The position numbers and the translations under genes are program-made. 30,874 nt of DNA, from IMG/VR virus record IMGVR_UViG_3300045988_027766, positions 1 through 30,874 of that record; one strand, 5' to 3'. Shown here one piece after another: positions 4,613 through 30,874 of the stretch (position 1 is its first letter; every line of letters starts with the position of its first letter). The stretch is from a virus. The notes beneath the pieces were generated by a model, which saw nothing but the letters and a program-made list of their open reading frames with translations, ran no database searches and was not told where the DNA came from.

Positions 4613-4945
4613 ATGAACGCTGAAATGTACTCACGAATCGGCGGCAAGGCGCTGCCAGCAGATAATCTGGACACGGTCAAGGTCATTAACTTCGTGGACA
4701 AGGAAGGGCAGCCAGTAGCCTTCGGCCAGGGCCCCGCAGGCCCCGCAGGCCCCGCAGGCCCCGTAGGCCCCGTAGGCCCCGCAGGCCCCGCAGGCCCCGC
4801 AGGCCCCGCAGGCCCCGCAGGCCCCGTAGGCCCCGCAGGCCCCGCAGGCACGATCACCAAAGCCGCCCACGTCGACCCAAACACCGGCTCAGTAGCGGAA
4901 ATAGTCTCCGCCCTAATAGCCGCAGGACTCATGGAAACCGCCTAA
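4613..4945 (+). CDS. collagen-like (Gly-Pro-Ala/Val)13 repeat protein; head fibre/decoration candidate
   Basis: 110 aa starting 2 nt after the capsid stop. The core is [40 protein letters not shown], flanked by non-repetitive N- and C-terminal segments. Confidence 0.7.
4730..4849. repeat. tandem 9-bp repeat ggccccgca/ggccccgta x13 (encodes the collagen-like tract)
   Basis: Copies are perfect at nucleotide level except for c/t at one position. This creates long shadow ORFs on both strands. Confidence 0.95.
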
Positions 4946-8457: not shown

Positions 8458-10509
8458 ATGGCGGATAGCACCCTCACTCTCGACGCTGAAATTAACACTT
8501 CCGATTGGGAAGCCGGTGTTAAGACCATACAGTCAGGCAGTCGCCAAATAGAAGCATCGGCACGCCAGGCAGGTGAAGGCATGGACGAAATCGACAAGTC
8601 CTCTGCCAAGGCTTCCGGCGGTACCGGTAAATTCGCTGCCATCGCCGGGGCCATGGGTGGTCTCGTGTCTACCGGCGTCAGTATGGCCATAGACGCGATT
8701 TCGGATCTTAGCGGCGATATCATCGAAGCTTCAGATTCGGCTCAGAAGTTCGCGAGCACTTTGAGTTTTGCCGGCTTGGACACGGGCACGATCGACCGGC
8801 TTACCGCTTCGACTCAGAAGTATGCGGATCAGACTGTGTACGACCTGTCAGACATTCGTAACACGACCGCACAGTTGGCTGCGAACGGTGTCGACGGGTA
8901 TGCTGAATTGGCGGAAGCCGCCGGTAACCTGAACGCCGTGGCCGGAGGTAACGCGGACACGTTCAGAAGCGTTGGCATGGTGTTGACCCAGACGGCCGGT
9001 GCAGGCAAGCTCACTACCGAAAACTGGAACCAGCTGAGTGACGCGATTCCGGGCGCTTCAGGCAAGCTTCAGGAAGCCATGAAGCAGAACGGGGCTTATA
9101 CGGGTGATTTCCGTGACGCGATGGCCAAGGGTGAGATCACCGCCGAGGAATTCAACAAGGCCGTCATGGATTTGGGTATGACCGACGCGGCGAAGGAAGC
9201 AGCGACCAGTACCAGCACTATCGAGGGTGCGATGGGTAATTTGGAAGCGTCCGTCGTGAACGTGGGCGTGCAACTCTTGGACTCGTTCAAAGGCCCGTTG
9301 ACGGAGGGTATGAGCGTGTTTGCGGAGGGTATCAGTAGCTTGCCTCAAGCGTTTAAGAGCATGATGGGGTCGATCACGCCGACATTGCAACGGTTGGGGA
9401 GCGTGTTCCAGTCTTCTTTCGTTCCGGTGGGGCAGGCTATCTCCGGTAAACTGCTCCCGGCCTTGCAGCCTTTCATGCAAGCCTTGCAACATCTTGGCAG
9501 TGCGATCATGCCTATTCTGGAGGCCGCTTTCGAAGCTTTAATGCCGGTTCTTGGTTCGCTTGTAACGGCCATCACACAGGTCGGAGGCACTATCATGAGT
9601 GCTCTCACACCGGTCATCAATAATCTGGCCATGGTTTTCCAAACAGTCCTACCGGTGATTCAACAGCAATTCCAAGTGTGGGGAACTGAAATCCAGAACA
9701 TTATCAACGCAGTGTTTCCTTTCATTCAGACGGTGATCACCACGGTAATGACTATTATCAACGGCATCATCACTACCGTATTGGCGGCTTTGCAAGGCAA
9801 CTGGAATGGTGTTTGGACAGGAATCCAGAACATTGCGGTCAGAGTATGGAATGGTATTCAGAATATTGTGACGGCTGGCGTGAACGCTGTTTCCGGTGTC
9901 GTCTCATCCGTCATGAACGCCGTTAGTAGCACATGGTCAGGCTTGTGGAATACGGTGAAAAGCATTGCCGGCAGTGCGTGGAATGGTATCACTAGTGCAG
10001 TCCGTAATGGTGTCAACAGTGTGGCGAATACGGTCAATGGTATCGGAGGTAAGATCAGGAGCGCGTTCAGTGGGGCAGGCTCATGGCTCGTCTCGGCTGG
10101 CAATAATATCATCCAGGGTTTGATAAACGGTATCAAAGGTGCCATCGGTAATGCGGTTGCAGCGGTCAAGGGTGCTGCTTCCAGTATCGTGAACGCGGCG
10201 AAGGGTGCGCTTGGCATTCATTCCCCGTCTCGCGTGTTCCGTGATGAGGTAGGCAGGATGATCCCCGCCGGCTTGGGCAAGGGCGTGGAAGCGAACATGA
10301 GTTTGGCTGTGAATCCTGTCCAACGCATGGTTGCGGATATCATGCCGAATAGTCTATTGCGTGGGCCGGCGAGTCTTCCCGTCTCGTCCCCGGTCGTCGC
10401 GAATGCGAATGGTGGGACTAGGGTATCGGCTCCGATCACGGTGAACGCGTTGGATCCGATGGCGGCCGCCAGGGAGACGGTACGCATGATTAATTTCGCT
10501 TACGTGTGA
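8458..10509 (+). CDS. tape measure protein
   Basis: 683 aa. It has a tape-measure core (..DLSDIRNTTAQLAANGV..TENWNQLSDAIPGASGKLQEAM..), periodic W/G-rich repeats (WNGVWTGIQNI, VWNGIQNIV, TWSGLWNTV, AWNGITSAV) and GIHSPSRVF near the C-terminus. Confidence 0.85.
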   Translation: MADSTLTLDAEINTSDWEAGVKTIQSGSRQIEASARQAGEGMDEIDKSSAKASGGTGKFAAIAGAMGGLVSTGVSMAIDAISDLSGDIIEASDSAQKFASTLSFAGLDTGTIDRLTASTQKYADQTVYDLSDIRNTTAQLAANGVDGYAELAEAAGNLNAVAGGNADTFRSVGMVLTQTAGAGKLTTENWNQLSDAIPGASGKLQEAMKQNGAYTGDFRDAMAKGEITAEEFNKAVMDLGMTDAAKEAATSTSTIEGAMGNLEASVVNVGVQLLDSFKGPLTEGMSVFAEGISSLPQAFKSMMGSITPTLQRLGSVFQSSFVPVGQAISGKLLPALQPFMQALQHLGSAIMPILEAAFEALMPVLGSLVTAITQVGGTIMSALTPVINNLAMVFQTVLPVIQQQFQVWGTEIQNIINAVFPFIQTVITTVMTIINGIITTVLAALQGNWNGVWTGIQNIAVRVWNGIQNIVTAGVNAVSGVVSSVMNAVSSTWSGLWNTVKSIAGSAWNGITSAVRNGVNSVANTVNGIGGKIRSAFSGAGSWLVSAGNNIIQGLINGIKGAIGNAVAAVKGAASSIVNAAKGALGIHSPSRVFRDEVGRMIPAGLGKGVEANMSLAVNPVQRMVADIMPNSLLRGPASLPVSSPVVANANGGTRVSAPITVNALDPMAAARETVRMINFAYV

Positions 10510-10528
10510 TAGGAGGTAGTCTGAATTC

Positions 10529-11419
10529 ATGAGCATTTTTACTTTGGATTCGCGTGATATCCGATTGACGTTGAATGGTTTCCCCTTGTATGGGGTGGAT
10601 GATAATGGTTGTGAATGGCATGTGACTTTTCAGGACGTGTCTGGCTTGTTCGACGGTGTGGCGTCCACGTTGAAAACGAGCGAGAAGGCCATGACCGATG
10701 GCTGGTATGGTAATCTGCCCCGCTTGCAAGGCCGTACCATCACCATTGAGGGTCATATTATCGGCCGGTGTACGGAGTCGTGTGTCAGCTCGTGGAATGC
10801 GTTCAAAAGCGTTCTGGATCCTCTTGGGATGATGCTGGTCGCCCGTTTGGGTGATATCAGCCGTCAAACGCAGGTGTTGCAGTCGACGTCCGCTCCCGTG
10901 GTCAAATGGGCTGGGGTGAACATGCTCCGGTTCAGTATTGGATTGACGTCCTTGAGTCCCTACTTGTATGGTTTGGAGCCTGTGTCCGGGTCTTCCAATC
11001 TGCCGAAAACGTCGGGTGGTATGGTATTCCCTTACGGGTTCGGGGAGAATGGTGTCTCATTGTCGTCCTGGACGTGGAGTGAGAATGTCGTGTCTGGTTG
11101 TGTGAACTTGTCTAACGTGGGTACGGCTCCCAGTCCGGTGGTGATTCGTATCGACGGGCCGGTCGTCAACCCGCAGGTATCGCATGTCGGGAGTGGTCAT
11201 GTCATTGCTTTTGACATGAGTCTTGGAACAAACCATTATGTGACCGTTAACGGGTTGACGCATGAGATCCTGGTTGACGGTACGGATCCTGCGCGTGGCC
11301 GTGTCGTCCGTCGTGAGTGGAGTCAGGCGGAACCCGGGTTGAATGGTTGGGCTTTCAGCGCTGCCGTATATTCGAATACGGCTTGTATGACGGTTTCGTT
11401 TTATCCGGCTTACGTGTGA
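10529..11419 (+). CDS. distal tail protein (Dit) candidate
   Basis: 296 aa with RBS AGGAGG. It is the first gene after the tape measure. Confidence 0.55.
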   Translation: MSIFTLDSRDIRLTLNGFPLYGVDDNGCEWHVTFQDVSGLFDGVASTLKTSEKAMTDGWYGNLPRLQGRTITIEGHIIGRCTESCVSSWNAFKSVLDPLGMMLVARLGDISRQTQVLQSTSAPVVKWAGVNMLRFSIGLTSLSPYLYGLEPVSGSSNLPKTSGGMVFPYGFGENGVSLSSWTWSENVVSGCVNLSNVGTAPSPVVIRIDGPVVNPQVSHVGSGHVIAFDMSLGTNHYVTVNGLTHEILVDGTDPARGRVVRREWSQAEPGLNGWAFSAAVYSNTACMTVSFYPAYV

Positions 11420-11429
11420 GGGGATTGTC

Positions 11430-12536
11430 ATGGGTTCTTATGGTGAATGGTTTGGATCGTCTTCTTCGTATAATGGCCGTGTCTTGTGGAATACGGCTGG
11501 TTTTCAGTTCCTTGCCGTGTCTTTGACTAGTGGGATCGTGTTGGCGGAGTTTCCGGACTTGCAGGTTTCCAAGCTTTCGTATCGTTTCGAGGAGACGACG
11601 AGTGAGACGGTGATGCTTCCGTGGCGTAATATTCCGTCCAATTGGGGTGAGGCTACGATCCCGTATGCTGTGGCGATTCTCCTGGTTCGCGGTTCGACGG
11701 TGTTATGGGGGGGTATTGTCGTTAAACGTGAACGGACGTTGCAAGGCGAGGGGTTGACGCTCACGTTGGCGACCGTTGAACATTATTTCGATAGCGTGTG
11801 TGTGAAGGATCATGTTTATTCCGCTTGGGGGCAGACTTGGATCGTGAAGGATCTCGTGACGTCTACGCTTAAGGATCACCGGTTCGTGTTCGATGTGAAG
11901 ACGGATCATAGTCTCATTACGCGTGATAGGACGTATACGGAGTCTTCCTATAAGACGTTGTTGAGTGTTCTTCAGGAGTTGTCGAATGTTCAGAACGGCC
12001 CGGAATGGTGTACGTCTTGGAAGGCTGATGGGGGTAGGTATGTGCCGGTTGTGACGGTTGCGGATAGGATAGGTTCCGTCACTCCGGTTACGACGTTTGA
12101 TGAGAGCGTGATGACGTCTTTCAAGGTTTTGGAGGATTATACGGCCGGCTATGGTGCGAACAGTGTCGTAGCGGTCGGAGCTTCGACTGATGAGAATCAG
12201 TTGCGTTCCGATGTGATGGTGGCTGATCAGTCTTACCGGCCTGTCGTGGAGCATGTGATCCGGCCGTCGTCGAGTGTTACGCGGAAGGAAACGTTGAACG
12301 CTCACGCTTCCTCTTCGTTGCGGCAATTGCAGGATGGTACGAATACTGTTGCCATGACGTTGAGTTTGATGGCCGCTCCGATGATTTACGAGGAGTGGAG
12401 GCCTGGGGATACCGTCGCGTGGACTGTTGCCGATGATGCTGGCCGGTTCGCTGGTTTCGCCCGTGGTGAGGCGCGTGTGGTCGGATATGATATTGATTTT
12501 AGTGGCGTGTGGACTATCACGCCTGTATTGCAGTAG
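11430..12536 (+). CDS. tail tip / Tal-like baseplate hub candidate
   Basis: 368 aa. It is the second gene after the tape measure. The call rests on synteny only. Confidence 0.45.
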   Translation: MGSYGEWFGSSSSYNGRVLWNTAGFQFLAVSLTSGIVLAEFPDLQVSKLSYRFEETTSETVMLPWRNIPSNWGEATIPYAVAILLVRGSTVLWGGIVVKRERTLQGEGLTLTLATVEHYFDSVCVKDHVYSAWGQTWIVKDLVTSTLKDHRFVFDVKTDHSLITRDRTYTESSYKTLLSVLQELSNVQNGPEWCTSWKADGGRYVPVVTVADRIGSVTPVTTFDESVMTSFKVLEDYTAGYGANSVVAVGASTDENQLRSDVMVADQSYRPVVEHVIRPSSSVTRKETLNAHASSSLRQLQDGTNTVAMTLSLMAAPMIYEEWRPGDTVAWTVADDAGRFAGFARGEARVVGYDIDFSGVWTITPVLQ

Positions 12537-12547
12537 GAAGGATTGTG

Positions 12548-13243
12548 ATGCAAGGCAAGTTCAGGTTTTCGCTTGATGGGGTAGATGCTACGGCCCGTCA
12601 GTTTGCGGAGGCTCGCCGACAGTTGGGGGAGTTGTCGTCGAGTGTCGGTGAGGCTGTTAGCCGATTGGGCGAGCGTATTACCTCCGTTGAGGATGGTCTG
12701 GCCTCGTTGGCTACTAAGTCGAGTCAGGCGGATGTTGATGTGGTTGATATGGTGGTTGTGCCTTCCCATGGTGGTACCGGGGTTCGGAACGTGTGTGATA
12801 ATCCGCTTTCCTTGGCTCCGAGAAGGCCGGTTTATTGTCTTTATGATGGTATGTTGGGGGTTGATTGTTCGTCGGTGTCTTCGGTGGTGGATGCCAGTGA
12901 TGCTGACGGGTTCATTCCTTTGGATGCTCTCCGTCGGGTGAAATGGAAGGTGTATTTTCTGAAGGATGACCTGAATCTGAGGATTGATGACGCGCAGCCG
13001 GTTGTCGGACTGGTAGCTGAGGATTTGGATGGTGCGGGGCTTGGTTTCTTCTGTGAATATGATAATGATGGGAATCCGGTCGGCGTTGACTATTCGAGGT
13101 TGAGTGTGGCTGCTTTACGGTTGGCTCAGCAGGTTATGGATGAGGTGGACGGGCTTAGGGCGGAGGTTTCCCGGCTTTCTTCCGTAGTAGGTAAAATGGG
13201 TGTGTCCACGTCTAAAGAATTGATTGTGAGGAATGATTCATGA
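12548..13243 (+). CDS. tail fibre with coiled-coil N-terminus and C-terminal intramolecular chaperone (peptidase S74-like) domain
   Basis: ATG 12548 follows AGGAAGGA (the track ORF starts at 12509). The N-terminal part is heptad-like. The C-terminus ..ASDADGFIPLDAL..VVGLVAEDLDG..VGVDYSRLSVAALRLAQQVMDEVDGLRAEVSRL resembles the endosialidase-chaperone domain. Confidence 0.55.
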   Translation: MQGKFRFSLDGVDATARQFAEARRQLGELSSSVGEAVSRLGERITSVEDGLASLATKSSQADVDVVDMVVVPSHGGTGVRNVCDNPLSLAPRRPVYCLYDGMLGVDCSSVSSVVDASDADGFIPLDALRRVKWKVYFLKDDLNLRIDDAQPVVGLVAEDLDGAGLGFFCEYDNDGNPVGVDYSRLSVAALRLAQQVMDEVDGLRAEVSRLSSVVGKMGVSTSKELIVRNDS

Positions 13244-14145
13244 CTGATATTGTATTGCATCCTTTGACTGCGTTGAACGGGCTTCCGGCTTATACTGCCG
13301 ATGATTACCGGCGTGTTGTCAACCCGTTCATGTTTCCGTCTAGCGGTGGTGCCTTTAATTGTGTTAAGGGTGTCCGGGTTGGCAGTCCTAGCCCGTTGGT
13401 GACGATCGACGGGTTGACTGTTACCGTTAAGCCTCATTGTGGGACTGTGAGCCCGTGGGCGGAGTCTGGCTCGTACACGTATGCTATTACGGAGCCTATG
13501 ACGGTGAAGGTGGCTGATTCGACGGGTGATTATAAGATCGTGGTCGCCGTTTATGATCCGAGTTTGTCTCATGGTGAGACTCCTGGCGCGTGGTTGCAGT
13601 CGTGGCCGGCCAGTACTCCGGATTCGGAGATCAATGGTTTGGTTGTGGCTAGGGTTACCGCTGGTGTCGTGTCTGATGTGGCTTCGAGGATTTATCCTGA
13701 TGGCACGGTTGAGGTTCAGAATCAGTCTCAGTTGAATGATGTTTCTAAGGTGGAGGGTCAGGAGGTCGTCGTCAGGGCGAATGGTCACCGGTATCGTCGT
13801 ATTAAGGGGGTTTGGTGTCCGTTGGACGATATTAGGCTTAACGCGGGTCAGTGGTATAAGGATTGGTCGATATGGTATAAGTGTTCTATGGCCGGCAATA
13901 TCGTCAGTCTTATGGTCAAGGCGACGAGGGGCCCTGAGTGGAAGGCTGCCGCGTGGTCGAAGAGTCAGATTCTCACGTTTCCGGATTATGTGAAGCCGAA
14001 CGTGACTGATCTTAACGTTCCGGCGTCCGGTGTTGAATATAGTGGTTTCCAGTTGGATCAGACTGGCTTATATGTGAGGCCTTTCAAGGATATCACGTAT
14101 GGGAAGGGTGCGTGGTCTTCTGCGACCATTTCGTGGTCGGTCTGA
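13240..14145 (+). CDS. minor tail / receptor-binding protein candidate
   Basis: 301 aa in an ATGA overlap with the fibre gene. It is the last structural gene before a terminator. Confidence 0.4.
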   Translation: MTDIVLHPLTALNGLPAYTADDYRRVVNPFMFPSSGGAFNCVKGVRVGSPSPLVTIDGLTVTVKPHCGTVSPWAESGSYTYAITEPMTVKVADSTGDYKIVVAVYDPSLSHGETPGAWLQSWPASTPDSEINGLVVARVTAGVVSDVASRIYPDGTVEVQNQSQLNDVSKVEGQEVVVRANGHRYRRIKGVWCPLDDIRLNAGQWYKDWSIWYKCSMAGNIVSLMVKATRGPEWKAAAWSKSQILTFPDYVKPNVTDLNVPASGVEYSGFQLDQTGLYVRPFKDITYGKGAWSSATISWSV

Positions 14146-22231: not shown

Positions 22232-23080
22232 TTAGAATACGTAGTTCTTGATGAAGTCTTCGACTTCCTCGTCGTGTTGGCGTTGTTCTTCCGGCGTGCG
22301 GGGCCACTGCGACTGCTGTGGCTTCTGCTGTGGCTTCTGGTATCCGGTGCGCTTGTAGTTTTCGATGGGGAAGAAGGAGCTCCAGCCGCGGCAGATGACT
22401 TCGTTGAGGTAGTCGTTGACGCTCATGTGGCTTTCCTGTGCGCAGTTATCGAGTTTGTCGATGTTGCCTCGGATGGCTCGATCGGTCATTGCGGAGCGCT
22501 TGGCCTTGCGGTTCTGGAGCCATGCTCCGAGTAGATCCTTGGTCGTCGGGTCGTTGGTGTAGGCGTCGATGATAGCGTCGAAGCTTTGGGCTTTGCGGGT
22601 CTTTTTTGGTTGTGGTTTTGGTTCCGGTTCGGCGATGGGCGGCTGGAATTGTTCCGGTGTTGCGTTCGTGGTGTTGGCCCATGGATCCTGTGCCGTGGTC
22701 GGGGCTTGGATGGGGTTTTCGGTGGTGGTTTCTTCCGGGTCGGGTTCGTCTGAGTGGACGTTGACGTCGAGCATCGCTTCTGCTTTTGCCGTCAGCGTAT
22801 ACCATGTGGTGCGATCGTATGCGGACTTGTTGTAGTTGCCTGTGAGGATGAGTCCGTTGTCCTTGAGTTTCTTGATGGCGGTGCGAATGACGTTGACCGT
22901 CATGTATGGGAAGAGCTCTCCGAATGCCTTGGTGCTGTTGAAAGTCCAGTAGTGGCCGTCGTGGAGGTTCGTGTGGTTGGCCGCGTTGTGTTCGCACCAG
23001 TAAGAGATGTTCTCTAGGAGGATTGCGGCGTTGGTGCCGACGAGCTGTGCGACTCCGATGTCGAGGATGTGCTTCTTCAT
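22232..23080 (-). CDS. replisome organiser: N-terminal wHTH + C-terminal DnaD/DnaB_2-like domain
   Basis: 282 aa. The N-terminus reads ..ILLENISYWCEHNA..GHYWTFNSTKAFGELFPYMTVNVIRTAIKKLKDNGLI... After an acidic/Pro linker comes ..LLGAWLQNRKAKRSAMTDRAIRGNIDKL... Confidence 0.65.
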   Translation of the reverse strand: MKKHILDIGVAQLVGTNAAILLENISYWCEHNAANHTNLHDGHYWTFNSTKAFGELFPYMTVNVIRTAIKKLKDNGLILTGNYNKSAYDRTTWYTLTAKAEAMLDVNVHSDEPDPEETTTENPIQAPTTAQDPWANTTNATPEQFQPPIAEPEPKPQPKKTRKAQSFDAIIDAYTNDPTTKDLLGAWLQNRKAKRSAMTDRAIRGNIDKLDNCAQESHMSVNDYLNEVICRGWSSFFPIENYKRTGYQKPQQKPQQSQWPRTPEEQRQHDEEVEDFIKNYVF

Positions 23081-23218
23081 AGTGTTTTTGTCCTTTGTTT
23101 AAAGTGAATCCCACCGACTGTCACCGTCTCCTACCCCGGTGGCAATCAATGGGATTCGTACCATGCAAGTTATGCTCTCCACATGAGTGGTAGGAGCCTC
23201 ACATGGTGTATGTCTCTA

Positions 23219-23248
23219 GTATAACACGTTTTTTAGACGACACGCCGA
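23219..23248 (-). promoter_or_regulatory. early promoter: TCGGCGTGTC box - 15 nt - TGtTATACT
   Basis: Minus strand reads gtcggcgtgtcgtctaaaaaacgTGtTATACTaga. It overlaps the 3' end of 23233..23538 and gives a ~130-nt leader for 22232..23080. Confidence 0.5.
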
Positions 23249-23538
23249 CTTACTCGGTTTATCGTATACCAGCTGAGGTTGCCGTGATGAACCATTCTGA
23301 GCAGACCCTGATCCTCAAGCTTTTCGAGAGCCTTGGAGACGATGACTTCGGGCAGTTCCGGAAACATCCGGGGGAAATCCTCGTAGGGCATCCGAACCCA
23401 ATAACGGCCGGCGTGGAAATGCCTCTGCCGCTTCCTCTGTTTCCGGTAGAAGTCGTAGAGCTGAGCGTAGACGGCTGCCGCGGAGAATCCCAGTCTCTTG
23501 ACCAGTTTGGTCATATGCTGAAGATCGTTCAAGATCAA
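23233..23538 (-). CDS. wHTH protein paralogous to the N-terminal domain of the replisome organiser
   Basis: 101 aa. ..AAVYAQLYDFYRK....GRYWVRMPYEDFPRMFPELPEVIVSKALEKLEDQGLL..SWYTI aligns by eye with residues ~20-95 of 22232..23080. Confidence 0.55.
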   Translation of the reverse strand: MILNDLQHMTKLVKRLGFSAAAVYAQLYDFYRKQRKRQRHFHAGRYWVRMPYEDFPRMFPELPEVIVSKALEKLEDQGLLRMVHHGNLSWYTINRVSRRVV

Positions 23539-23783
23539 TCCTCCCCCTCGATGAACGAGCTGAAGAGACTCCGATTGTAGAGGATGCCTCCAAGCTTCGA
23601 CAATGCGGTCACCGGATTATCGTACTTCCTGCATGCGGCATCCCAAGCCTCGAGGACTTCCTCATCGCCGAACTTCAAGCATAGGCCCGAGAAGAACTTG
23701 CGGGACTTCTGTTCGCCTTCCTCGCTGAAGTGGACGCCGTACCGTTCGACGAGACTGTTTCCGATAGTGTCATAAACGCTCAT
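23535..23783 (-). CDS. hypothetical early protein (first gene of the leftward operon)
   Basis: 82 aa with SD AAAGGAG. ATGA overlap with the next gene. Confidence 0.55.
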   Translation of the reverse strand: MSVYDTIGNSLVERYGVHFSEEGEQKSRKFFSGLCLKFGDEEVLEAWDAACRKYDNPVTALSKLGGILYNRSLFSSFIEGED

Positions 23784-23816
23784 TATGTGCTCCTTTCTTG
23801 CTAATGCGTTACCTCA

Positions 23817-23847
23817 AGCATACCACGAAGCATCGAAAAGCATCGAA
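23817..23847 (-). promoter_or_regulatory. extended -10 promoter TGgTATGCT with two tandem AAGCATCGAA boxes over its -35 region
   Basis: Minus strand reads cttcgatgcttttcgatgcttcgTGgTATGCTtgagg. The -10 ends ~34 nt before ATG 23783. Confidence 0.45.
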
Positions 23848-24000
23848 GAGGCAAGGGGTAGACACCCACCATCCATCTACATCCTCACCTCACTCACGTA
23901 CCCAACCCTCACTCACTCGCCTGACTCTCACCCACGTTCACCCCGGCCACCGCCATGCCCTGTTTCTTGAGGGAGGGAGCGAGCTTCGGTGGAGAGAGTA

Positions 24001-24045
24001 AGCCTTAAGAGCTGAAAAATTTAAGTGCTTTTTCAGGTTAAGGCT
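24001..24045. other. long imperfect hairpin with AT-rich centre
   Basis: agccttaa-gag-ctgaaaaa-tttaagtgc-tttttcag-g-ttaaggct (7-8 bp + 8 bp stems). Confidence 0.6.
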
Positions 24046-24304
24046 GATGACTGTTTCCGTCGGTCGGTCGGTCGTACGGCGTCGGTCATAAGAGTGATGC
24101 ATTACTGTCACTGGTGCGGCATACCCCAACAGATCGCGCTACATCTTTTTGCTTTGGATGTGATGGTGTCGGCACCCCGGTTATTCCACCATCGTCTGAA
24201 GGGTCGGTTGAACTAGCACCTCTAACGTGTGTATCGGCGAGTGTGAGTCGCCGCCCCGTTCTCCGAGCTTGGGGTATTGCTAGGAAGTTGTTGTGCCTCC
24301 GCAC

Positions 24305-24336
24305 CCAAGTATGTGATATACTTGGCCTTGTTTTTT
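24305..24336 (+). terminator. + strand hairpin plus T6 (first of two tandem terminators in the ORF-free region)
   Basis: ccaagtat-gtgat-atacttgg, then ccttg tttttt. Confidence 0.45.
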
Positions 24337-24343
24337 GCTATAA

Positions 24344-24384
24344 CCCCATCATAGCACACTCCGGCTGTGATGGGGATTTTTTTA
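24344..24384 (+). terminator. + strand rho-independent terminator (second of tandem pair)
   Basis: ccccatca - 16-nt loop - tgatgggg, followed directly by attttttta. Confidence 0.65.
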
Positions 24385-24678
24385 TGCCATCAACGTATCC
24401 ACGGCATTCCTCTCCCGCGCTTTTCACCGCACATGCCTCCAGAACGCACGTAAAGGCCCCCCAAACCGATTTACACGCAAAACCCGATAACTCGTCAGGA
24501 CTCACCCACGATAGCCCGTCAGAAAAGCCTTTACGCACGAAAACGACGTTCCAGCCCAAACAAGCACCGAAAAGCATCGAGAACGCCAAACCGTAAGAGA
24601 ACCACCCAAGCCAAGCACAGGCCGACTCTCCTCCATGCCCTAACCAGATCGAACATCGAGACCAAGGCACGAAGTGCA

Positions 24679-24711
24679 GCATCGAGACCAAGCCCGTATC
24701 CTCCTCGATGC
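24679..24711. repeat. 33-bp hairpin element, copy A (identical to 25094..25126)
   Basis: gcatcgagaccaagcccgtatcctcctcgatgc. The terminal 8 nt are inverted complements. Confidence 0.9.
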
Positions 24712-24751
24712 CCAGAGCCATGGAAGAAGCATGGAAGACATCAGGTCGGAT

Positions 24752-24843
24752 CCCATGGCTCCATGCCTCAGCCACCGAAGACATCGAGGCTAGGCTCCGA
24801 TCGGTCAGGACTCCCGATCCCCTTGGGTTGGGATTGGTTCCCC
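24752..24843. repeat. 92-bp perfect direct repeat, copy A (identical to 25140..25231)
   Basis: cccatggctccatgcctcagccaccgaagacatcgaggctaggctccgatcggtcaggactcccgatccccttgggttgggattggttcccc, read identically at both sites. Confidence 0.9.
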
Positions 24844-24889
24844 TCCGGGACACCGAGGCGCGCAAGCGCCCTTACTTGTTTAGGGGAGT

Positions 24890-24926
24890 GTTTACAACTG
24901 CCGGTTACAACTGGGGTTACATCTGG
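24890..24926. repeat. three tandem ~12-bp repeats GTTACAWCTGG
   Basis: gtttacaactg cc ggttacaactgg ggttacatctgg. Confidence 0.8.
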
Positions 24927-24942
24927 TATAGGTTCGCGTTTC

Positions 24943-25005
24943 CACCCAAATTCATTTTAATCTTCACCCAAATTCATTTTAATCTTCACCCAAATTCATT
25001 TGGGT
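24943..25005. repeat. 22-bp tandem iteron-like repeats x2.7, last copy forming a palindrome
   Basis: cacccaaattcattttaatctt occurs twice, then cacccaaattcatttgggt (acccaaat/atttgggt arms). Confidence 0.9.
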
Positions 25006-25093
25006 TTATTCTCAAATGGATTTCAGTCCTACCTCAAAGGGGTGTGGGCGTCTGGGCCGCGGAATTCCAACGAAAAATGCCTATCCATGTCGA

Positions 25094-25126
25094 GCATCGA
25101 GACCAAGCCCGTATCCTCCTCGATGC
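25094..25126. repeat. 33-bp hairpin element, copy B
   Basis: Identical to 24679..24711. Confidence 0.9.
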
Positions 25127-25139
25127 TTCCGAGCTTCTC

Positions 25140-25231
25140 CCCATGGCTCCATGCCTCAGCCACCGAAGACATCGAGGCTAGGCTCCGATCGGTCAGGACT
25201 CCCGATCCCCTTGGGTTGGGATTGGTTCCCC
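25140..25231. repeat. 92-bp perfect direct repeat, copy B
   Basis: Identical to 24752..24843. Confidence 0.9.
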
Positions 25232-25275
25232 ACGGACACGCACGCGGCTCCCTGCGGGAGCCGTATATGTGTAGT

Positions 25276-25316
25276 GGAAGGGTTATCTAATAGAAGGGTT
25301 ATCTAGTAGAAGGGTC
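25276..25316. repeat. 16-bp tandem repeats AGAAGGGTTATCTAR x2.5
   Basis: ggaagggttatctaat agaagggttatctagt agaagggtc. Confidence 0.85.
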
Positions 25317-25321
25317 TTTGC

Positions 25322-25339
25322 TTGATACCCAGGTATCAA
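25322..25339. repeat. perfect palindrome TTGATACC-ca-GGTATCAA
   Basis: 8-bp arms with a 2-nt spacer. Further ATACC/ATAC half-sites follow. Confidence 0.85.
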
Positions 25340-25401
25340 AGGGGTCAATACCTAGATACTGAAGGTAATCGGTTTATTCCGCCTTTCATCGCGTCTGGGT
25401 T

Positions 25402-25460
25402 GACTGAACAAACAAGGCCCCGGCCAGTCCGGGAATCTCTTCCCAAACCCAACCGGGGCC
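25402..25460 (-). terminator. terminator of the 26589->25479 operon
   Basis: Minus strand reads ggccccgg - 29 nt - ccggggcc, followed by ttgtttgtt. Confidence 0.5.
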
Positions 25461-25478
25461 ATGCCTATTCCTAAGCCG

Positions 25479-25820
25479 TCACGTCTCCCTGACGCTCATG
25501 CCATACCGTCGTGCGAAGAGCTTGCTCTTAAGCCGGTACACGTCCGTTCTCATGCCCTTGACGTCCTCGACGACCTCCTTGCCCGTCTCCTTGTCCACGT
25601 AGACGAAATCCGCTACGTAATAGACAGGCCGGTAATGTCTGCCATCCACGTCGAAGGCTGGCACGAGCTCATAACGCACCTGTCGGCGCAGACCTTCGAT
25701 GGATCCGTCCTCCTCCATGCCCTTCAGGACGAGATACCTGTCGGCCTCCTTCCGCGAGTCGAAGGTGATGCCATCGACAGTCGTCTTATGGGCGTGGTAT
25801 TTGCTCCGTCCGTTCCACAT
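25479..25820 (-). CDS. DUF1064 (putative Holliday-junction resolvase/endonuclease) protein
   Basis: 113 aa; KTTVDGITFDSRKEADRYLVL...YYVADFVYVD..GKEVVEDVKGMRTDVYRLKSKLF. Confidence 0.7.
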   Translation of the reverse strand: MWNGRSKYHAHKTTVDGITFDSRKEADRYLVLKGMEEDGSIEGLRRQVRYELVPAFDVDGRHYRPVYYVADFVYVDKETGKEVVEDVKGMRTDVYRLKSKLFARRYGMSVRET

Positions 25821-26589: not shown

Positions 26590-26646
26590 TTTCGGTGTCC
26601 TTTCTGTTCGAGTGGATTATGTTATCCAACGTTGTGTGATATCTAA

Positions 26647-27178: not shown

Positions 27179-27985
27179 ATGAATACCGAAATCCAAACAT
27201 TCAACTTCAACAGCGCCCCAGTGCGCACCCTGACCGACGAGAACGGTGACCCGTGGTTCGTCACCAAAGACGTATGCAACATCCTTGGACTTAACAACGT
27301 AGGCCAAGCGTTGGCACGCCTCGACGACGACGAGAAGAGTTCCATCACTTTTAAAGATGGAACCCCCGGAAACCCAAACAAGGCAATTGTTTCTGAATCC
27401 GGCCTCTACTCTCTCACCCTCGCATCACGCAAACCGGAAGCCCACGAGTTCAAACGCTGGGTAACCCACGAGGTGCTGCCTCAGATCCGCAGAACTGGCG
27501 GATACATTCCCACCACAGCCGTGGACGATGACATGACCATCCTCGCGAAGGCCGTGCTCGTCGCACAGAAGACCATCGAACTCAAGAACCAACAGCTCCA
27601 AGCCAAAGACACGCAAATCAAGGAGCTGGAACCAAAAGCGCAAGCCCTTGACGCTTTTACCGACGTGGAAGACCGACTTCTCGTCCGCGACGCCGCCAAG
27701 ATCCTCTCCAACTCCGGCACCATCATCACCGAAAAGCAGTTGCGCGAATGGATGGCAGCCAACGACTGGATCTACAAGCACAATGGTTCGTGGCAAGCCA
27801 CCGCAAGACACTGCACGGCCGGCCACCTCGTAATGGTCATGTCCACAAAGCACGGCACCAAGCCCAACGGCACGAAATTCGCTTTCCCACCCACCGTACG
27901 AATCACCCGCAAAGGCCTGGCCCTGCTACACGCACGACTCGGCGAAACCCGCCTGAACGAAACGCTCGAAACAACCACCCACTAA
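27179..27985 (+). CDS. antirepressor, Bro-N + KilAC (ANT) domains, paralog 1
   Basis: 268 aa; FNFNSAPVRTLTDENGDPWFVTKDVCNILGL...FKRWVTHEVLPQIRRTGGY, then the C-terminal part ..LLVRDAAKILS..EKQLREWM. Confidence 0.8.
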   Translation: MNTEIQTFNFNSAPVRTLTDENGDPWFVTKDVCNILGLNNVGQALARLDDDEKSSITFKDGTPGNPNKAIVSESGLYSLTLASRKPEAHEFKRWVTHEVLPQIRRTGGYIPTTAVDDDMTILAKAVLVAQKTIELKNQQLQAKDTQIKELEPKAQALDAFTDVEDRLLVRDAAKILSNSGTIITEKQLREWMAANDWIYKHNGSWQATARHCTAGHLVMVMSTKHGTKPNGTKFAFPPTVRITRKGLALLHARLGETRLNETLETTTH

Positions 27986-28003
27986 CCAAAAGAAAAGGAA
28001 ACA
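27869..28003. repeat. 135-bp near-identical direct repeat, copy 1 (vs 28717..28851)
   Basis: It covers the last 39 codons and stop of the gene plus the following SD. I found 4 mismatches, clustered in ctgaacgaa vs ctaaccaaa. Confidence 0.85.
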
Positions 28004-28005
28004 AA

Positions 28006-28833
28006 ATGAACACCGAAATCCAACCATTCGAATTCGAAAACAACCAGGTCAGGGCACTGGCCGATGGCGACGAAGTAATGTTCGTCGCATCCGACATCGC
28101 CAAGATTCTCGGATACCGCGACGCGGCCAACCTCACACGCACCCTTGACGACGACGAAAAAGGTACTCATGAAGTGAGTACCCCCCGTGGTGGTATGCAA
28201 ACCATGACTGTCCTCGCCGAGTCCGGCCTTTACCGCGCAATCCTTAATCGTGAAATCGCCTACGTGAAAGAGCCGGAATCACAGGCATTCGTGAAGCGCT
28301 TCCAGCGTTGGGTCACCCATGAGGTGCTCCCATCCATCCGCAAGCATGGTATCTACGCTACCGAAACCACCATCGACCAGATCCTAACCGACCCGGATTT
28401 CGGCATCAGACTGCTCACCAACCTGAAAGAAGAACGAGCCAAACGAATCGAAGCCGAAAACCAAGTCAAGGAGCTGGAACCAAAAGCGAAAGCATTGGAT
28501 GACTTCACCGACGTGCCCGACACCCTACTAGTCAGGGACGCCGCGAAACTGCTCTCGAACGCCGGCACGCCCATCGGCGAGAAGGAACTGCGAGAATGGC
28601 TCAGCCAGCACGATTGGATCTACCGGCATGCCGGCACATGGTGGGCAGCCTCGGAACGCGTGAAAGCCGGACACCTGGTCATGGTAGAGTCAAGATCGTA
28701 CGGACAACATAGGGACGGCACGAAATTCGCTTTCCCACCCACCGTACGAATCACCCGCAAAGGCCTGGCCCTGCTACACGCACGACTCGGCGAAACCCGC
28801 CTAACCAAAACGCTCGAAACAACCACCCACTAA
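28006..28833 (+). CDS. antirepressor, Bro-N + KilAC (ANT) domains, paralog 2
   Basis: ATG 28006 follows AAAAGGAAAC (the track ORF starts at 27748). The 275-aa product has FEFENNQVRALADGDEVMFVASDIAKILGY...FQRWVTHEVLPSIRKHGIY. Confidence 0.8.
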   Translation: MNTEIQPFEFENNQVRALADGDEVMFVASDIAKILGYRDAANLTRTLDDDEKGTHEVSTPRGGMQTMTVLAESGLYRAILNREIAYVKEPESQAFVKRFQRWVTHEVLPSIRKHGIYATETTIDQILTDPDFGIRLLTNLKEERAKRIEAENQVKELEPKAKALDDFTDVPDTLLVRDAAKLLSNAGTPIGEKELREWLSQHDWIYRHAGTWWAASERVKAGHLVMVESRSYGQHRDGTKFAFPPTVRITRKGLALLHARLGETRLTKTLETTTH

Positions 28834-29926: not shown

Positions 29927-30874
29927 ATGCAGATAGCAAGACCATACCGTGATTTATGGTGGTGGCTCCATACGGAGACGCCACCATATCGTTATTACTG
30001 CTATTCCGGCGGTCGAGCTTCCGGCAAAAGCACCGCCGTCGCACAAAGCCTCATACTCCGTGCCGCCAGCCAGCCAATCACCGTCCTCTGCGCGCGAGAA
30101 TACCAAAATTCCATTTCCGACTCCGTGCACAAGCTTCTTGTCGGCACCATCCGTAAATTCGGATTGCAAGGCTTTGAAATCACCCGCGACGGCATCAGCC
30201 ACATCAACGGCAGCACTTTCATCTTCCGCGGCCTGCACAACAATTTCGAAAGCATCAAAAGCATCGAAGGCATCGACGTCTGCTGGGTCGAGGAAGCACA
30301 GACAGTCGGCAAGGAAAGCCTGACCACGCTCATCCCGACCATCCGCAAAGCCAATTCCACACTGATCTTCACATGGAACCCCCGTACGAGCCACGACACC
30401 GTCTGGAACTATTTCATCTCCTCGGACTCAAAGGAACGTCACAAGCAGACCTGTCACTGGCATACAACATTCAAGGACGTGGAAAGACTCCTCAGCCCGG
30501 ACGTACTCGCCATGATCGAAGCCGACCGGAACTCCGCAGACTTCGGCCACATCTGGCTAGGACTCCCCTACTCGGACACCGACAATCAGCTCATCAGCGA
30601 CAGCATGCTCAACGAAGCCATCCACCGCACCCCAGAGGACGGCCCGGTCACCTTCGGCATCGACGTGGCCCGATACGGCAACGACCGCACCGCACTCACC
30701 ATCAAAAAAGGCAACCATATCGAAACACTCGAATCATGGACGCATTCAAGCATCGTCGACACAGCCGAACGGATCAGGCTCCGCGCCTCCCAATACCAGC
30801 CGATCGACATCCGCATCGACGACACCGGCGTAGGCGGAGGCCTCACCGACCTCCTCAAATCATGGCAACTGCCA
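29927..30874 (+). CDS. terL: terminase large subunit, N-terminal (ATPase) part; runs off the window end and continues at base 1
   Basis: Frame 2 from ATG 29927 reads MQIARPYRDLWWWLHTETPPYRYYCYSGGRASGKST (Walker A). It continues with ..IDVCWVEEAQ (Walker B) and ..FGIDVARYGNDRTAL (nuclease). There is no stop before the end, so it is absent from the ORF track. Confidence 0.85.
   Translation, partial: MQIARPYRDLWWWLHTETPPYRYYCYSGGRASGKSTAVAQSLILRAASQPITVLCAREYQNSISDSVHKLLVGTIRKFGLQGFEITRDGISHINGSTFIFRGLHNNFESIKSIEGIDVCWVEEAQTVGKESLTTLIPTIRKANSTLIFTWNPRTSHDTVWNYFISSDSKERHKQTCHWHTTFKDVERLLSPDVLAMIEADRNSADFGHIWLGLPYSDTDNQLISDSMLNEAIHRTPEDGPVTFGIDVARYGNDRTALTIKKGNHIETLESWTHSSIVDTAERIRLRASQYQPIDIRIDDTGVGGGLTDLLKSWQLP
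30734..30874. repeat. terminal overlap copy 2 (identical to 1..141)
   Basis: See 1..141. Confidence 0.9.

Follow-up and report, generated by a model that had tools for sequence, protein, structure and literature searches.

The locus described here, a 1,695-bp intergenic gap (positions 23784-25478) in the IMG/VR virus record IMGVR_UViG_3300045988_027766, invites comparison with two sets of described systems: iteron-type replication origins of phages and plasmids, and, on another side, large structured RNAs and phage morons. The whole stretch of DNA analysed, 30,874 nt long (positions 1 to 30,874 of the record), is called the window, and related contigs carry L numbers. From comparison with these relatives, we conclude that the gap is non-coding, that an iteron-type origin with two cassettes is supported within it, and that it carries a probable gene for a structured RNA, here called R.

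Lambda-type origins, served by an O protein, have direct repeats about two helical turns apart, an AT-rich stretch and adjoining short secondary repeats, with specificity residing in the N-terminal winged helix-turn-helix (wHTH) of an O/DnaD-like initiator, next to which comes a DnaC-like loader; the window has the same arrangement. In lambda, however, the iterons lie inside rep, after the N-domain, as they also do in L034, L035 and phage phiLdb, whereas the candidate origin of the window lies outside rep, about 1.8 kb upstream in non-coding DNA, and has two cassettes of differing specificity. After each cassette come a hairpin and some or all of a conserved 450-bp core, which the intragenic origins lack. 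Theta plasmid iteron origins (pSC101, R6K, P1 and F types) have 19-22-bp iterons, AT-rich neighbours and exchangeable initiator/iteron pairs. The window shares their iteron size class, the AT-rich neighbours and the exchangeable specificity pairs, but it has no identified DnaA boxes and no identified partition or copy-control genes, and it belongs to a siphovirus of about 30 kb with no integrase among the open reading frames (ORFs) scanned. The origin would be a new arrangement of a known kind.

For the RNA, the nearest comparisons are GOLLD, ROOL and orphan large RNAs such as OLE, HEARO and raiA. Like these, R is large, multi-helix, phage-carried and a stand-alone unit with strong covariation. 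GOLLD and ROOL are larger than R (about 420-480 nt), and R differs from them in matching no Rfam 15 family and in being found so far only in phages of Bifidobacterium asteroides and related uncultured gut phages. Phage morons are promoter-gene-terminator cassettes inserted between genes; R resembles them in being autonomous, with its own terminator, present or absent within a group, at varied sites, and often opposite in orientation to its neighbours, but its cargo would be a structured RNA and not a protein, and no promoter was identified in the copies of the window type.

Non-coding status and repeat density

The preliminary description of this DNA had seen no convincing ORF in the gap, and conservation tests bear this out. 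None of the ten gap ORFs has a Pfam match at E<=1. Their frames are interrupted in aligned relatives, being kept without a stop in 0/16, 0/23, 10/23 and 8/23, and gap substitutions show no 3-base periodicity (149/193/170, 267/224/200 and 200/160/161 by codon position), whereas DUF1064, used as a coding control, has a strong third-position excess (207/171/557). On this sequence evidence the gap carries no protein-coding gene. The coding readings that had been entertained, namely ORFs of 160, 175 and 157 amino acids (aa), a 70-aa ORF from the ATG at 24384 and a CxxC-like peptide within R, were rejected because of the frame breaks, the stops in relatives, the lack of periodicity and the lack of Pfam matches. 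In L090 (2406-2954), a public contig that is nearly identical, automatic annotation has a 182-aa gene running on the opposite strand within the gap; judged by the conservation tests, this gene is spurious.

The gap is also, as first suspected, exceptionally rich in repeats: it is the most repeat-dense 1,695-bp interval of the circular genome, with 392 bases covered by exact direct repeats of at least 11 nt, against a mean of 75 and a maximum of 332 in other intervals of that length. Nine direct-repeat families were detected, along with perfect duplications of 92 nt (24752-24843 = 25140-25231) and 34 nt (24678-24711 = 25093-25126) and the following tandem arrays.

23828-23847: 10 bp x2
24892-24926: 12 bp x2.8
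24943-25001: 22 bp x2.7, 100% matches
25277-25315: 16 bp x2.4

About 35 related loci were aligned to the gap, which among relatives ranges from 391 to 1694 bp in length. Conservation is patchy. Positions 25410-25478 are conserved in about 24 related loci and 24397-24853 in about 25, at about 83% identity; 23784-23855 is conserved as well (the region 23784-23859 in 17 or more loci). Some 16 loci have the stretch 23961-24396, and a 37-kb relative carries it at an unrelated site. Positions 24860-25090 are peculiar to the window, and 25080-25264 duplicates part of the core. The gap is a mosaic of at least four elements: origin, RNA R, core and flanking signals. It had been pointed out at the outset that absence from otherwise syntenic relatives would speak against a function. 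Such a reduction does occur, in that DUF1064 and rep are just 139 bp apart in the 35-37-kb relatives L034 and L035, but their iterons lie inside rep and L034 carries R elsewhere, which argues for modularity and not for lack of function.

A probable iteron origin whose repeats co-vary with the initiator

The gap is flanked on both sides by - strand genes, among them the putative initiator Rep282. The flanking genes, the origin features and the iteron families are as follows.

dUTPase and DUF1064 (25479-25820), - strand: one flank of the gap
p82 (23535-23783), wHTH p101 (23233-23538), O/DnaD-like Rep282 (22232-23080) and DnaC-like loader, - strand: the other flank
25272-25365: cassette 1, C-type (GGTATCGA type), orphan
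25320-25365 and 25272-25319: units of cassette 1, two of about 22 bp (GGTATCAA-type) and three 16-bp repeats, respectively
25236-25266: GC-rich hairpin GGCTCCC-TGC-GGGAGCC, between cassette 1 and the duplicated block
25080-25235: X', partial duplicate of the origin-proximal core end, with repeats D2 and D4 (perfect) and D3
24892-25030: cassette 2, E-type, matched to Rep282
24943-25008: cassette 2 iterons, 22-bp CACCCAAATTCATTTTAATCTT x3, with a degenerate fourth (to 25030)
Spacer of cassette 2: contains ATACCAGAT on the - strand
24892-24926: three 12/13-bp short repeats of cassette 2
24857-24870: GC hairpin GGCGC-GCAA-GCGCC between cassette 2 and the core, at the site of the hairpin of other cassette types
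Iteron family: CCGCAAAATC
Iteron family: CTCAAAATGA
Iteron family: GGTATCGA
Iteron family: CTGCAAAATTTGCAG
Iteron family, the window's own: CACCCAAATTCATTT

One layout follows the DUF1064 terminator in all relatives: 3-5 iterons of 22-23 bp, an AT-rich spacer (of the TATAATATAGAT type in the relatives), three 12-16-bp repeats and a hairpin, the last at the corresponding site after the short repeats in every relative. In about 25 related phages there is an exact one-to-one correspondence between iteron families A to E and subgroups of the N-terminal wHTH domain of Rep. The PHROG families matched by Rep282 itself are replication initiation protein, O-like initiator and DnaD-like helicase loader.

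Cassette 2 is found in the window alone among 30-kb relatives. It aligns with origins made up of iterons, ATACCAGATnTAA and AT-rich sequence that L034, L035 and Lactobacillus phage phiLdb carry within rep, directly after the N-domain, and all four share an in-phase AAATG iteron core and an invariant ATACCAGATnTAA block. L034 and L035 are likewise the sole relatives to share the Rep282 N-domain (59-61% identity), which among cultured phages is closest to Lactobacillus phages such as phiLdb (52%). Cassette 1 is made of the repeat types that form the sole cassette of L007, L010 and L012, whose Rep N-domain is different (C-class); the window has no C-type Rep to match it. GC troughs lie on both cassettes, 31% at 24940-25019 and 40% at 25260-25379, against 51-62% in 1-kb intervals genome-wide.

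The core end next to the origin is single-copy in most relatives, but L024, L025, L031 and L036 have two copies, and a second copy is also found in L091; several relatives are likewise tandem, with the matched cassette adjoining the full core. The perfect core duplicate that follows the orphan cassette 1 suggests that the origin and the Rep N-domain were exchanged together by recombination.

An iteron-type origin with two cassettes is supported, because iterons and initiator co-vary across relatives and because of the homology to intragenic O-type origins; Rep282 would be expected to bind the iterons and the origin to fire. An origin had been among the roles first proposed, together with plasmid-like maintenance, which gains no backing: the PHROGs scan of the window's ORFs, which did not take in every small one, turned up no partition gene. 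Candidate DnaA boxes picked by eye are not conserved in the alignment. A reading of the core as a decayed rep gene was dropped, since tblastn of the relatives' Rep and wHTH proteins against the gap gave noise except in the iteron region.

A probable structured RNA and its varied locations

A structured non-coding RNA had also been among the candidates, and one emerges on the + strand, between the core and the replication operon.

~23966-24385, + strand: predicted gene for structured RNA R, from covariation, strand asymmetry and a terminator
23971-24306: multi-junction domain of R, closed by a long-range helix of 23971-23990 with 24279-24306
24305-24325: hairpin at the 3' end of R, followed by an intrinsic terminator, 24343-24376 plus U7

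Covariation analysis with homologous regions, recommended in the preliminary description, was carried out on an alignment of 23961-24392 and 16 homologues (17 sequences). RNAalifold returned 111 pairs in 17 helices, with 97.7% of cells paired; compensatory changes support 22 of the 111, where shuffles give 10.0 +/- 1.9 and slid controls 2-8. The alignment has 239 G-U cells and 16 A-C cells, and so the folded strand is the +. When distant members are added the count becomes 43/77 against 20.3 +/- 2.7 (shuffles) and 7-12 (slid controls), pair counts that are inflated by the fitting of this wider alignment to a covariance model. R changes at 1.55 per site, compared with 4.9 at DUF1064 third positions and 1.5-1.8 at first and second positions. 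What all subgroups retain is a hairpin whose internal loop, UUAUKC, is asymmetric, together with a GGGUC motif directly after it. The two + strand terminators originally noted, with hairpins at 24305-24335 and 24343-24385, are confirmed (fold z -5.0 for the R terminator), and the - strand terminator at 25406-25460 described below is to be added to them.

That R is a structured non-coding RNA is supported, on the strength of compensatory change, and it is a new RNA family without an Rfam counterpart; its transcription, and any role, we infer from sequence. At gathering score, Rfam 15 has no match anywhere in the window, contrary to the early suggestion that ROOL or GOLLD might be present. At E<=10 the gap gives two chance-level hits only, NsiR1 (19 bits vs 39, on the terminator) and MIR528, and the divergent R members give nothing at E<=1. 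ARAGORN found no transfer RNA or transfer-messenger RNA, and a full-text literature search found no account of R or of the origin of these phages.

A covariance model built from the central 270 positions of R locates it in four settings: further human-gut contigs; 35-37-kb phages, where it adjoins genes for an HNH endonuclease and a ParB-like protein; a divergent human-gut contig, L079; and the bee-gut phages BlindBasel1 and BlindUri1 with two more contigs, which score 21-29 bits (E about 1e-4 to 1e-7). Each of these settings has R divergent from the start of the adjoining operon. The cassette has no counterpart in about 10 relatives and stands at other sites in L034, L055 and L056. Intrinsic terminators follow R in the three subgroups examined (window type, L079 and BlindBasel1), and promoter-like sequences precede it in the bee-gut and 35-kb phages, the bee-gut R having TTGCAT-17-TATCAT upstream and a terminator of its own. 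In BlindBasel1 (L039, 28293-29139) and BlindUri1 (L073, 15239-16085) the distant homologue lies inside an unannotated 846-bp gap beside the Erf gene. In L053 and L055, R stands head-to-head with a small HNH endonuclease, after which comes a ParB-like/nuclease gene; next in L053 is a 568-aa ORF that may be the large terminase, and L055 has a second HNH gene downstream of R. A pattern scan of bacterial and archaeal genomes gave 14 hits, all of which the covariance model rejects as chance, so that no prophage copy or host was found. Among cultured phages, R of the bee type matches BlindBasel1 and BlindUri1 only.

Covariation is blind to the difference between RNA and single-stranded DNA (ssDNA), and DNA hairpins tolerate G-T pairs. 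R might accordingly be imagined as a strand-specific ssDNA element, an sso/ssi-like signal for lagging-strand or primosome initiation, which folds when the + strand is exposed in replication. In the 30-kb phages R is no more than about 500 bp from the origin, those of the window type have no clear promoter upstream of it, and sso elements are exchangeable cassettes. But in the window, L079 and BlindBasel1 a strong hairpin and a U/T-run come after the fold on its own strand, a transcription terminator for which an ssDNA signal has no need; promoter-like elements stand before R in the bee-gut and 35-kb phages, and there it lies beside HNH/ParB-like/terminase genes or Erf and not beside iterons. 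The fold, at about 340 nt and 16-17 helices, also exceeds typical ssi signals. We consider the ssDNA reading improbable. The chances seem to us about even that R is an undescribed class of functional RNA, a multi-junction RNA of about 420-480 nt forming a mobile RNA-plus-terminator cassette in phages of Bifidobacterium-like hosts of human and honeybee guts and acting in trans, for example as a ribonucleoprotein scaffold, ribozyme or anti-defence decoy, and not as a regulator of its neighbourhood, with the UUAUKC/GGGUC part as its functional centre.

The conserved core

The third element lies between cassette 2 and R.

24397-24853 (~450 bp), - strand: conserved non-coding core, with a CATCGAG cluster and conserved hairpins

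Its conservation equals that of the neighbouring coding gene, yet it is non-coding, as judged from single-base indels and the lack of periodicity, and its substitution rate is intermediate (2.5-3.3 changes per site). It is confined to the 30-kb group, where p82 always accompanies it, and in relatives without R it directly abuts the operon promoter. The core may contribute to the initiation zone, where it could aid unwinding, helicase loading or priming, possibly by means of - strand hairpins, or it may be a leader; this is the assignment we make with the least assurance of any element.

Alternatively, this stretch could encode another non-coding RNA or a long structured leader, made by - strand transcription that starts near the origin and heads for the replication operon, whose promoter the core adjoins in the R-less relatives; being G-rich, such an RNA might form an R-loop or primer. 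On the - strand the consensus fold (-82 kcal/mol) has roughly double the stability of that on the + strand (-41), 96% of cells are paired, many changes are of the G-C to G-U or A-U to G-U kind, which would be mismatches on the + strand, and z is -3.4 for the single-sequence fold. Compensatory pairs number nine, where shuffles give 4.6 +/- 1.5 and reach nine in only 3 of 500, but slid-structure controls already give 4-6, so the excess is small, and G/U-rich sequence readily folds by chance. The test has little power in any case, since the relatives have diverged by only about 17%. Nor did a terminator scan and the alignment of relatives yield a conserved - strand promoter or terminator for the core, the promoter candidates found by eye not being conserved. 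We hold the - strand RNA to be a tentative option, on balance doubtful.

It might also be that, apart from the iterons, most of the region has no function of its own and is debris of recombination, namely the duplications and linker homology that module exchange leaves behind. Perfect duplications and tandem cassettes do point to recent recombination, the gap varies in length among relatives as given above, R and the second cassette are optional, and L030 does without much of the region. R, however, is constrained like first and second codon positions, with the core intermediate; moreover, the fold of R is kept by compensatory changes even in phages without other similarity here. This explanation is unlikely.

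Flanking signals

The remaining features belong to the two ends of the gap and to the tract beside R.

25406-25460, - strand: intrinsic terminator of the dUTPase-DUF1064 operon, a GGCCCCGG...CCGGGGCC hairpin, then TTGTTTGTT on the - strand
23860-23965: repeat tract of variable sequence separating R from the promoter, C-rich (G-rich on the - strand), with CTCACTCAC and CCCAACC motifs and repeats D7 and D8
23784-23859, - strand: control region of the replication operon, with an extended -10 TGnTATGCT (23817-25) and a ribosome-binding site, AAGGAG (23790-95)
23828-46: two AAGCATCGA repeats (+ strand sequence) at the -35 position of the replication-operon promoter

The terminator fold has -39.2 kcal/mol and z -4.7, and its T-runs are clearer in relatives. 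The C-rich tract has a GC skew of -0.78, varies among relatives and is present in the R-less L032. Assigned from consensus, the replication-operon promoter is a putative one; its TG-n-TA(T/C)(A/G)CT is retained in all relatives, R-less and R-containing alike. AAGCATCGA/CATCGAG motifs are enriched in the gap, with 8 of the 10 genome copies of CATCGAG falling there and concentrating in the core. A protein-binding regulatory hub, one of the roles originally entertained, is plausible, and no more than that, from the motifs in the gap and at the promoter. A AAGCATCGA-like tandem at 30246-30276 was rejected as a regulatory site: it lies inside a + strand coding region and is a coincidence of the peptide KSIEGID. 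Gene calls on L091 suggest that this coding region is the large terminase.

A model for the gap and the evidence against it

The reading that we favour, and think likely, is that the gap serves the replication module as its non-coding control region, built of separable and exchangeable parts that include the iteron origin, the core, the R gene, the terminator and the promoter. Along the - strand, the dUTPase-DUF1064 operon would stop at its intrinsic terminator. Next would come the iteron origin: three to four 22-bp repeats to which the Rep wHTH N-domain would be directed, then AT-rich sequence, a set of three repeats of 12-16 bp and a hairpin. The cassette beside the full core (24892-25030) would be the partner of the window's own Rep282, while the orphan at 25272-25365 is probably the leftover of a recombinational swap of origin and Rep N-domain that would also have duplicated about 215 bp. 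The 450-bp core flanking the origin would serve as initiation zone or leader. Between it and the replication-operon promoter would lie the self-contained R gene, in the opposite orientation and with its own terminator, perhaps a 'moron'-like unit with an RNA cargo that acts in trans. Finally, the extended -10 promoter would drive p82, p101, rep and dnaC.

Several observations tell against this model. Window-type phages have no sigma-70-like promoter directly upstream of R, and the wider R alignment is subject to the inflation mentioned above. The structure signal in the core is weak, and conservation there could reflect use as a recombination linker alone. L030 has neither R nor the promoter, and two thirds of the core and the first ~32 codons of p82 are missing from it as well; its genome may be defective, or its assembly at fault. 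In this 28.7-kb contig (10675-10980) the origin-proximal part of the core is joined directly to about codon 33 of p82.

The main evidence against an origin in the gap is the strand-composition skew, whose polarity near the gap is, by the bacterial rule that the leading strand has G>C, that of a terminus and not of an origin; the usual rule would put the origin near 8.5 kb. A sharp switch of composition at 24.4 kb, as first described, is not what the cumulative curves show: the GC skew peaks at 23106 and the TA skew at 26644. Switch points are at 8502 and 23106 (GC) and at 9217 and 26644 (TA), roughly half of the 30.7-kb circle apart, and third-position skew is extreme (on coding strands, GC3 to -0.74 and AT3 to +0.86), flipping independently of gene orientation. 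The pattern looks like replication asymmetry. In the tail genes (8458-14145) the codon-end preference is opposite to that of the head genes on the same strand.

The repeats might, then, mark a replication terminus or fork barrier, with initiation about half a circle away near 8.5 kb, in keeping with third-position GC/AT skew flips at about 8.5 kb and about 23.1-26.6 kb that give the gap a terminus polarity. Against this, 8.1-8.5 kb is tightly packed coding sequence at the junction of tail chaperone and tape measure, without repeats, whereas the repeats of the gap co-vary with the DNA-binding domain of the initiator and are homologous to O-type intragenic origins. The skew is also not seen in the 37-kb L034, so that it may have another cause. 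A terminus at the gap strikes us as highly improbable, and the skew, its polarity being wrong, was dropped as evidence for the origin.

Genome, relatives and other features

The window is a complete circular assembly, with a 141-bp direct overlap common to both ends and a circle of about 30.7 kb. PHROG matches of its ORFs make the phage a siphovirus-type one: portal, capsid/protease, tape measure, Erf-like annealing protein and DnaC-like loader, and further an O/DnaD-like initiator, dUTPase, DUF1064 and two Ant-like proteins. Its near relatives are contigs of about 30 kb in IMG/VR and human-gut metagenomes, and the nearest cultured relatives are two Bifidobacterium asteroides phages of the honeybee gut (portal identity 49%). 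By blastn, the gap has no match in the cultured phage collection. Exact look-up of the DUF1064 protein retrieved a 2.7-kb fragment and two contigs of phage size (about 31 kb), and flanking host sequence is absent from all three.

The product of p82 has no Pfam or PHROG match, and none in PDB using a 14-sequence profile; a likeness to the DnaD C-terminal domain, considered for a time, is unsupported. The - strand gene p101 (23233-23538) encodes a stand-alone wHTH protein of 101 aa with a likeness to the N-domain of replication initiators. About half of the relatives have it between p82 and rep, and its presence largely coincides with R and not with iteron type.

Elsewhere, a 110-aa ORF directly after the major capsid gene (4613-4945, + strand) contains a 9-bp x13 tandem repeat (4730-4849) that encodes a collagen-like (GPA/GPV)n tract, and the product may be a head decoration or fibre protein. 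Past the divergent switch region, two adjacent paralogous Bro-N/KilAC anti-repressor-like genes (27179-27985 and 27748-28833, + strand) are the source of the second most repeat-rich interval of the genome.

Significance

Gene callers put spurious ORFs in this region, the 182-aa gene of L090 being one example. The present analysis offers a concrete, testable origin for a widespread group of human-gut phages of about 30 kb, in what would be a clear natural case of origin and initiator specificity swapped as a pair, and of an O-type origin relocated from the rep gene into non-coding DNA. Large intricate RNAs lacking a known function are rare and have repeatedly led to new biochemistry; since R occurs in the cultured phages BlindBasel1 and BlindUri1, whose host is B. 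asteroides, it is open to direct study.

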